Below, piece after piece: positions 10,508 through 11,425 of a stretch of DNA of 64,000 nucleotides. Under the pieces are notes generated by a model that saw only the letters and a program-made list of their open reading frames with translations, was not told the origin of the DNA and did no database searches. How positions within the stretch are numbered: the first letter of the stretch is position 1; every line of letters starts with the position of its first letter. A program made the translations under genes and the position numbers. This stretch comes from Candidatus Omnitrophota bacterium (GTDB lineage Bacteria > Omnitrophota > Gorgyraeia > B26-G9), in assembly GCA_043805415.1 (NCBI GenBank), contig JAZDHZ010000033.1, forward strand, positions 89,600-153,599. The letters are read 5' to 3'.

Positions 10508-11425
10508 ATGAATAAATTAAAGAAGTTGGGTAAGGGATTAGAAGACATTTCCTATTTGTTTCTTTCTCCGGAGCAAGAAGATACTATTCAAGAAGAGTCC
10601 ATGGCTGAAAAAAAGAAAATTTTAACTGAAACTATTGAGATTACGACAAAAAACATTTGTTTAATCGGCAATAGCCATGATTCGCGAGATGCTTTTTTAG
10701 TGATTAATTTATCATTAGCTTTGGCTAGACTGGGGATGCGTATCGCGGTAGTTGATATGGATGAGAAGCTTCCTTGTCTAAATTTTTTATTAGGAAAAAG
10801 CGCTAACAATGGATCGCAAAATAATGATCAGGAAATTGTTCGCCAAGGGCCTTTTGGCGTAAAGCTGGCAGGGCTAAATGAGTCTCTGCTTGAAAATATG
10901 TTGGTTGATTCTGTTGCTAGAAAAACAATTATGCTGGAACTGAAAAAAATGGAAGAAGAAGTTGATCTTGTGCTGATTAGTGTATCACAAGATAGCCTTT
11001 ATTATATGAATCCATTGCTTAGAAAATCAATAGAAGAATTTCTAGTTTTTGTTTCTCCGGATAAAAACTCAATGCTTAATTCTTATAAAGTTGTAAAAAC
11101 CATTTTTTCTAATAACCCGGTTGCTAAAATTGGTACGATTATAACTGATATTGAACACATGTATGAAATTGACGCGGTGTTTAATAAAATGTTTTCCGCG
11201 GTAAAGAAATTTCTGGTTAAAGAGCTGTATAAATATGGATTTCTTTTTAAACTAAAACAGGAAATTAATAACAACGCGAATATCGCTTCTTTTTATGACG
11301 CGGATTTGACGGCTTGCATCTCAAATATCGCGCAGATTATTATATTGCGCTTGAACCTTGCGGAAAATGTTAAATCAAGCGGGGAATTATTTAAAAATGT
11401 TTTTAATGAGTTTGGGATAAATTGA
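10508..11425 (+). CDS. MinD/ParA-fold pseudo-ATPase with ParB-N-terminus-like peptide
   Basis: The region ICLIGNSHDSRDAFLVINLSLALARLGMRIAVVDMDEKLPCLNFLLG aligns with the MinD segment SGKGGVGKTT...VIDFDIGLRNLDLIMG. The P-loop is replaced by GNSHDSRD, with no lysines. The N-terminus is MNKLKKLGKGLEDISYLFLS. Confidence 0.55.
   Translation: MNKLKKLGKGLEDISYLFLSPEQEDTIQEESMAEKKKILTETIEITTKNICLIGNSHDSRDAFLVINLSLALARLGMRIAVVDMDEKLPCLNFLLGKSANNGSQNNDQEIVRQGPFGVKLAGLNESLLENMLVDSVARKTIMLELKKMEEEVDLVLISVSQDSLYYMNPLLRKSIEEFLVFVSPDKNSMLNSYKVVKTIFSNNPVAKIGTIITDIEHMYEIDAVFNKMFSAVKKFLVKELYKYGFLFKLKQEINNNANIASFYDADLTACISNIAQIIILRLNLAENVKSSGELFKNVFNEFGIN

Follow-up and report, generated by a model that had tools for sequence, protein, structure and literature searches.

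A 16-residue peptide occurs almost unchanged in two otherwise unrelated proteins encoded beside a ParA gene in a Candidatus Omnitrophota bacterium, and it is likely to be a ParB-type module for docking on and activating ParA that is carried by partners other than ParB. The DNA analysed here, referred to as the window, is a 64,000-nucleotide stretch of contig JAZDHZ010000033.1 (positions 89,600 to 153,599, forward strand); its source is a Candidatus Omnitrophota metagenome-assembled genome (100% match to V1747_06675). The ATPase in question is a Soj-type ParA with a C-terminal carbohydrate-binding module of the AMPK-beta type (ParA-CBM48). On the reading that we favour, an FlhG-fold pseudo-ATPase (carrier 1), acting as an adaptor, and a DUF4912 protein (carrier 2) would both address this same ParA-CBM48. 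A previous reading of the window, made from the sequence only, had proposed that both carriers might be clients or activators of the ATPase. Our analysis supports that interpretation: every part of it that could be tested computationally held up, with the caveats that the DUF4912 copy of the peptide is restricted to certain lineages and that a third type of carrier exists.

Two copies of one peptide in the window

The two copies, KKLGKGLEDISYLFLS in carrier 1 and KKLGKGLEDISTLFLS in carrier 2, lie where the sequence-only reading had placed them (Table 1) and have 15 of their 16 residues in common. The remainders of the two proteins are indeed unrelated, carrier 1 having an FlhG/MinD-like fold and carrier 2 a Lys-rich arm followed by DUF4912 and a Glucodextran_B-like domain, and the gene that adjoins them does encode a ParA fused to CBM48. 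A six-frame scan of the window that tolerated up to seven mismatches, or required just a loose LG[KR]G[LIVM] core, returned these two sites only; judged roughly by amino-acid frequencies, chance alone would produce about 0.1 matches to this core there. The peptide is amphipathic. Its core reads L-G-K/R-G-L-E-D/E-I-S-(Y/H/T)-L-F across carriers, and in the carrier 1 copy the columns K5, K6, L7, G8, L11, D13, I14, S15, L17, F18 and S20 are nearly invariant.

At the level of DNA the two copies differ at 13 of 48 nucleotides. The differences touch 10 of the 16 codons and are synonymous in nine of these, and paired copies in four related genomes are identical at 32 to 37 of 48 nucleotides. Thus the identity of the peptides is held at the protein level, and the same divergence excludes recent duplication or gene conversion as the cause of their likeness. 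An accident of history with no shared function, be it duplication, conversion or chance in low-complexity sequence, would have had a setting favourable to conversion, since some 2.7 kb separates the two genes within one operon-like string. That explanation is effectively refuted by the mostly synonymous differences, by the finding of two matches only in 64 kb and by the retention of both copies in genomes where carrier 1 is just 57% (locus L009) or 54% (L025, on the same contig as L020) identical to that of the window.

Linkage of the peptide to ParA

A degenerate-DNA scan for KLGKGLEDIS across 185,579 species genomes found 18 loci, 15 of them in Omnitrophota; the other three, in Bacteroidales and Christensenella, lack the LF tail and are chance matches. 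Eleven of the Omnitrophota loci have the motif in carrier 1 orthologues and five have it in DUF4912 proteins, L009 holding both. In the DUF4912 proteins it is internal, at amino acid ~42-49 (internal stretch ~42-70). Across genomes, then, the motif is restricted to these families and is not scattered among unrelated proteins. A metagenome scan for LG[KR]GL[ED][ED]IS.LF gave 34 loci, and a peptide-profile search of a 5.8-billion-protein database (20 candidates) gave one split-gene fragment. Pattern matches in L011, L016, L024, L034, L041 and L042, which lack ParA and related genes, were set aside as chance.

With the chance pattern-only matches excluded, the pooled loci contain 41 distinct primary carriers on contigs that span 37-65% GC, and 36 of these carriers have at least 900 nt of DNA upstream. 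A Soj-type ParA gene is found directly upstream in 36/36. The ParA proteins adjoining carriers are 38-90% identical to the ParA of the window.

Three arrangements can be distinguished. In type I, the Omnitrophota arrangement, ParA-CBM48 is followed by the pseudo-ATPase with the motif, a 231-residue protein (p231), PgeF, the DUF4912 protein (with or without the motif) and a GH57 enzyme. Type II (L027, L056, L063) consists of a ParA without CBM48, the motif-bearing pseudo-ATPase and p231; a MerR or ribbon-helix-helix (RHH) gene lies upstream, and the surroundings are free of glycogen genes. In type III, exemplified by L053, ParA-CBM48 is followed by a p231 homologue that itself bears the motif. 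The small DNA-binding regulator of type II lies directly 5' of ParA (MerR-type at 9106-9585 of L056, RHH_3 at 105-293 of L063), a placement that recalls plasmid-type par operons.

Of the neighbours of the motif, ParA alone is constant, and the motif itself is found on three scaffolds: the pseudo-ATPase, the p231 homologue and the DUF4912 protein. Together with the invariable linkage, this ties the motif to ParA and not to any one carrier. The peptide might be thought to dock on some other hub, such as the pseudo-ATPase, p231, glycogen or the GH57 enzyme, or the membrane, given its amphipathic character and its presence in a glycogen-linked protein. Yet the motif is kept where the pseudo-ATPase is missing (L053 type), where p231 is missing (L064) and where there is no CBM48, DUF4912 or GH57 nearby (L027, L056, L063), while no such locus is without ParA; its internal position in the DUF4912 proteins also means that it is not a signal peptide. 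We therefore regard a hub other than ParA as quite improbable.

Resemblance to ParB's ParA-binding motif

In Myxococcus xanthus, ParB's ParA-binding motif occupies residues 11-19 of an unstructured N-terminus, and the chromosomal motif is L11-G-R13-G-L15-x-x-L18-I19, i.e. LGRGLxxLI (Schnabel et al. 2025; PMC12462528). Activation, but not binding, depends on residue R13, for which about half of ParBs have Lys; I19 is hydrophobic and required for binding to ParA; and, given DNA, a peptide of residues 1-20 is enough to stimulate ParA (PMC12462528). The sequence-only reading had likened the Omnitrophota peptide to the N-terminal peptide of ParB, and the likeness is borne out: L7-G-K9-G-L11-E-D-I14-S15 fits the published motif at 8/9 positions. 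The shared core is LG(K/R)GLxxI, with LGKGL in both window copies and LG[KR]GL or a one-residue variant in all carriers with a degenerate Walker A. Set against the spacing of L11, L15, L18 and I19 in ParB, L7, L11 and I14 fit, position i+8 is Ser, and L17 and F18 follow at i+10 and i+11.

On the side of the proposed receptor, the best match of the window ParA in the PDB is M. xanthus ParA (8ray, 3e-57). It has a deviant Walker A, KGGCGKT, at amino acid 10, and its D39, Q41 and R221 align to D60, Q62 and R238 of the M. xanthus protein, R238 being the DNA-binding arginine. The catalytic Asp, the Motif 2 Gln, the basic DNA-binding residue and the deviant Walker A are conserved in 33/33 ParAs from these loci, position 238 being R or K in all 33. 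The equivalents of the ParB pocket are Q98, L134, L136, F139, L171 and L176, and positions 150, 152, 155 and 187 of the pocket are hydrophobic in at least 29/33 locus ParAs. By alignment, the window ParA thus retains most of the ParB-binding pocket as well as the DNA-binding arginine.

Several observations weigh against our reading. The ninth position of the motif, I19 in M. xanthus ParB, is here an invariant Ser. Pocket position V116 is replaced by Q, E or P, and L192 by T or S in 11/33 ParAs, so the docking geometry may differ from that of ParB and ParA. A profile of the peptide run against PDB sequences retrieved no ParB chain, only a chance match to L24E; it is therefore the published motif, and no score from a database search, that underlies the resemblance to ParB. 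Many lineages have no DUF4912 copy, which shows that the system can do without it. Finally, the peptide might cross-talk with any canonical ParAB pair elsewhere in the genome. Plasmid ParBs avoid the chromosomal motif, presumably against such cross-talk (PMC12462528), and here the family-specific Ser, the YLFLS extension and the changed positions 116, 155 and 192 could serve to prevent it. The window itself contains no ParB and no second ParA (phmmer with Spo0J: no match).

The peptide could also bind ParA as a tether, recruiter or inhibitor and not as an activator of its ATPase, for example by holding ParA-CBM48 on the scaffold of the pseudo-ATPase and on glycogen coated with DUF4912. Two departures from ParB, the Ser in the ninth position and the invariant (Y/H)LF(L/I)S extension, are compatible with such a role, as is a weaker related motif in carrier 2, LGPISDLKTLF, that has no basic residue. 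There is a precedent in PomY, whose helix alpha5 has no basic residue and binds PomZ at the ParB site (bioRxiv 10.1101/2025.12.01.691545). However, the central K/R, which in ParB is specific to activation, is kept in all carriers with a degenerate Walker A, as expected of an activator, and we consider tethering or inhibition unlikely.

Carrier 1, an FlhG-fold pseudo-ATPase

The 305-residue carrier 1, for which an exact-sequence look-up gave no record, was modelled with AlphaFold2 (AF2) at a predicted local distance difference test (pLDDT) score of 75.5 and a predicted template-modelling (TM) score of 0.74. The model consists of a globular alpha/beta domain (48-305) preceded by a disordered tail (residues 1-44, pLDDT <50) within which the motif lies. 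The best Foldseek matches are FlhG (4rz2; 2.4e-14, TM 0.65/0.76), FleN and MinD. The Walker A is degenerate, with 'GNSHDSRDA' in place of GKGGxGK[ST], and there is no DQAxxLR.

An N-terminal MNKLKKLGKGLEDISYLFLS is nearly invariant in 42/44 homologues of carrier 1, all of which are from Omnitrophota or the Planctomycetes-Verrucomicrobia-Chlamydiae (PVC) group where named, and the two exceptions are N-terminally truncated gene calls. The 25-30 residues after the motif vary freely in these 44 proteins and form an acidic linker. Metagenomic homologues at 25-30% identity still begin ..KRLGKGLEDISHLFLSG, so the motif, conserved among orthologues, persists in homologues at this distance. When 1.84 billion representatives were searched with a profile of the carrier 1 family, 2,403 matched. 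In the best 147 of these, the motif accompanies a degenerate Walker A in 31 and an intact one in six, and 100 lack the motif and have Walker A intact, most of these 100 being FlhG with N-terminal DQAxxLR. These counts and the FlhG fold point to carrier 1 as an FlhG-derived pseudo-ATPase in which the N-terminal activator helix was exchanged for a ParB-like one.

Motif-bearing MinD/FlhG-like variants with an intact Walker A (GKGGTGKS) are found in L061 (2986-4819) and L064 (1266-3034). The L064 protein, a MinD-like protein with SLGRNLKDVSDVFFS, follows a 259-residue ParA, and p231 is absent. The ParA of L061 is a 121-residue remnant and the motif tail there has been lost or relaxed, reading LGRSLEDISTVAVP. 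This apparent joint decay of motif tail and ParA is a point in favour of ParA as the partner of the peptide. The intact variants suggest an evolutionary series that leads from a pair of ATPases to an ATPase with a pseudo-ATPase.

p231 and the third carrier

In the AF2 model of p231, amino acids 1-150 are globular (pLDDT >90) and are followed by a disordered linker and a conserved C-terminal helix. Its Foldseek matches are to NucS/EndoMS (2vld, 3.7e-6; 5gke), and the E-x-K of the PD-(D/E)xK fold is not conserved. The acidic/aromatic C-terminal helix has the consensus LTPEEI(A/T)EFMDF and is present in every complete p231 from loci with a pseudo-ATPase, some variants missed by our regular expression having been recognised by eye.

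A third carrier of the peptide is provided by 208-residue p231 homologues with RPLGRGLEEISHLF at amino acid 17. They come from high-GC soil contigs without a carrier 1 gene and follow ParA-CBM48 in L028, L035, L043, L045, L046 and L051-L054. The C-terminal tail is absent from 8/8 distinct p231 homologues that carry the N-terminal LGRGL peptide, all from loci without the pseudo-ATPase. This complementary distribution suggests that p231 may normally reach ParA by way of the pseudo-ATPase; type III loci would do without the adaptor, the peptide there being fused directly to a p231 homologue.

Carrier 2 and the link to glycogen

The motif in carrier 2 occupies amino acids 45-60 if translation begins at TTG 13105 and 42-57 if it begins at ATG 13114, the likelier start because orthologues begin M(A/T)KKTS. 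It lies in a Lys-rich, low-complexity arm. [RK]KLGKGLEDIS[THY]LFLS is nevertheless exact in the DUF4912 proteins of L004, L006, L009, L015, L025 and L059, amid Lys-rich flanks that cannot be aligned, and it is absent from the shorter DUF4912 proteins of L001, L002, L003 and L008. The second copy is therefore real and selected, but lineage-restricted.

Two further features of the arm were seen. The weaker motif lies at amino acids 319-329, about 45 residues before the DUF4912 domain, and is conserved as LG[PS]IS[DE]LK.L[FLI]KK in L004, L006, L008 and L025, of which L008 lacks the primary motif. It has the hydrophobic spacing of LGKGLEDISTLF with a one-residue gap and could be an ancestral or binding-only copy. 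A 57-nt (19-residue) tandem repeat, AKVETKPAxxKEIVAxKTI, is present in 4-6 copies with 78-86% matches in the Lys/Ala-rich arm (13416-13750), and the length of the arm before the DUF4912 domain is highly variable between lineages, from ~105 to 372 amino acids.

The CBM48 of ParA scores 59.5 bits against the AMPK1_CBM model (cutoff 26.8) and aligns to the AMPK beta-2 module (4y0g) at 6e-11, with FNNW, YKF and DGQW retained. The Trp/Lys/Trp/Asn set that we take to bind sugar was assigned on the pattern of AMPK module structures. The DUF4912 gene is always just upstream of the GH57 gene in related loci. With an AMPK-beta-like module on the ATPase and a DUF4912 gene beside GH57, glycogen would be the most probable cargo both in Omnitrophota and in soil loci of type III. 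Since type II loci lack any glycogen signature, the core machine of ParA, peptide and p231 is not intrinsically a glycogen system.

Gene order at the locus

The genes from 9381 to 16766 are separated by short gaps (Table 1). The order of pilin, ParA-CBM48, carrier 1, p231, PgeF, DUF4912 and GH57 genes, followed by housekeeping genes, was kept in every Omnitrophota contig examined, down to ~47% identity in carrier 1, and the locus lies in a housekeeping synteny of ManC ... UppS, CdsA, Dxr, RseP, IspG and ProS. The pilin-like gene is 5' of ParA-CBM48 in the window and in all Omnitrophota loci examined. PgeF/YfiH always separates the p231 and DUF4912 genes in Omnitrophota loci and is absent from types II and III. 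A reading of the locus as a defence system was rejected because of this conserved housekeeping synteny and because PADLOC gave weak nuclease-fold matches to p231 alone.

Table 1. Coordinates of the features of the ParA-CBM48 locus in the window.
Feature	Position (nt)	Strand	Details
Type IV pilin-like gene	8715-9224		N_methyl, ComP_DUS-like; directly upstream of ParA-CBM48
Soj-type ParA with C-terminal AMPK-beta-like CBM48; proposed peptide receptor	9381-10487	+	Pfam AAA_31 3.5e-53, AMPK1_CBM 3.8e-16, CBM_48 5e-8
Carrier 1, FlhG/MinD-fold pseudo-ATPase, 305 residues	10508-11425	+	Weak CbiA/MinD signal; AF2; Foldseek
Motif copy 1, KKLGKGLEDISYLFLS	10520-10567	+	Amino acids 5-20 of carrier 1
p231, PD-(D/E)xK NucS-C-like domain, 231 residues	11433-12128	+	Weak NucS_C match; AF2; Foldseek
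C-terminal tail of p231, LTPEEITEFMDF; candidate peptide for docking on the pseudo-ATPase	12057-12092	+	Amino acids 209-220 of p231
PgeF/YfiH	12232-12987	+	Cu-oxidase_4; between p231 and DUF4912 genes
Carrier 2, Lys/Ala-rich disordered arm (~370 residues), DUF4912 and Glucodextran_B-like domains	13105-14988	+	Pfam DUF4912 7.9e-38, Glucodextran_B 6e-6
Motif copy 2, KKLGKGLEDISTLFLS	13237-13284	+	In carrier 2 (K/A-repeat protein)
Weaker related motif, LGPISDLKTLF	14059-14091	+	In carrier 2
GH57 1,4-alpha-glucan (glycogen) branching enzyme	15186-16766	+	Glyco_hydro_57 6e-39, BE_C 2e-41; NCBIfam branching-enzyme models 5e-102

A possible mechanism and its significance

ParA/MinD ATPases are responsible for the positioning of chromosomes, plasmids, carboxysomes, chemoreceptor arrays and division sites. 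At the locus described here, the peptide would be displayed on flexible tails of non-ParB proteins whose genes form one string with that of a Soj-type ParA. ATP-bound dimers of ParA-CBM48 would bind to the nucleoid via R221 and to glycogen via CBM48, and the central Lys of the peptide would promote ATP hydrolysis and the release of ParA, as the ParB 1-20 peptide does. That the peptide binds ParA and stimulates its ATPase we infer from sequence and from the published behaviour of ParB. The FlhG-fold pseudo-ATPase, as the universal carrier, would be the probable adaptor and would act with p231, held through the C-terminal tail of the latter. In the lineage of the window, a second copy would be presented on the Lys-rich arm of the DUF4912 protein, a putative partner of the GH57 branching enzyme, such that two different cargo-side proteins would address the same ATPase.

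Our literature searches found nothing relevant on a ParA with CBM48, the positioning of glycogen granules, DUF4912 or 'LGRGL', and a survey paper on the Omnitrophota makes no mention of ParA, ParB or glycogen. It is possible, though on balance doubtful, that the locus represents a widespread and undescribed ParB-free ParA system and the first ParA machine to space or partition glycogen granules along the nucleoid, with two cargo-side activators that share one peptide; in such a system the p231-type nuclease-fold scaffold would probably bind DNA or the cargo. The locus suggests that in the course of evolution the activating peptide of ParB type has been passed, as a portable module, from one scaffold to another unrelated one, that the role of adaptor can fall to a pseudo-ATPase from the ATPase's own superfamily and that a storage polysaccharide may be a cargo of ParA. 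For DUF4912, whose genes are tied to those of GH57 branching enzymes, it also offers a first clue to function.

Comparison with known ParA/MinD systems

The closest known system is that of chromosomal ParB, described for M. xanthus (PMC12462528) and reportedly, by Leonard et al. in 2005, for T. thermophilus. The carriers have in common with ParB the core L-G-(R/K)-G-L-x-x-(L/I) with its central basic residue; the carrier 1 peptide lies in an unstructured N-terminal tail, its gene comes directly after a Soj-type parA, and a matching hydrophobic pocket and the DNA-binding arginine are present in the partner ParA. Unlike ParB, the carriers have neither the ParB/Srx CTPase domain nor a helix-turn-helix (no ParBc match in any carrier), the last hydrophobic position is Ser followed by an extra invariant (Y/H)LF(L/I)S, and as many as three unrelated scaffolds bear the motif, in one case at an internal position. 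A further difference is the CBM48 on the ParA.

ParA/MinD systems have one cognate activator each, PomXYZ being the sole exception (bioRxiv 10.1101/2025.12.01.691545). In this system of M. xanthus, one ParA/MinD ATPase is served by two activating proteins (PMC7993993; bioRxiv 10.1101/2025.12.01.691545). By analogy, the Omnitrophota locus would provide more than one cargo-side protein for a single DNA-binding ParA-like ATPase, with the activator peptide on a disordered terminus. PomX and PomY, however, use different elements and different sites on PomZ, whereas the two proteins of the window carry the same peptide, and there is no FtsZ or division link to be seen at the window locus.

Carrier 1 has the fold of FlhG (YlxH/FleN) and is its neighbour in the profile search. 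Like FlhG acting on FlhF, it may use a short N-terminal peptide on a flexible tail to activate another NTPase. In contrast to FlhG, it has a destroyed Walker A and, at the N-terminus, LGKGLEDISYLF in place of DQAxxLR, and its neighbour gene is ParA and not FlhF, with no flagellar genes nearby.

A further parallel may be drawn with McdAB, which positions carboxysomes, and with other orphan ParA cargo systems (PMC10241942, PMC10554743). Here too, a ParA-family ATPase would position non-DNA cargo on the nucleoid together with an adaptor that is small and in part disordered and has its activating region at the N-terminus. The adaptor has no sequence relation to McdB; the window ParA, unlike its McdAB counterpart, keeps the classical KGGxGKT, and the ATPase itself bears the module for binding cargo, CBM48.

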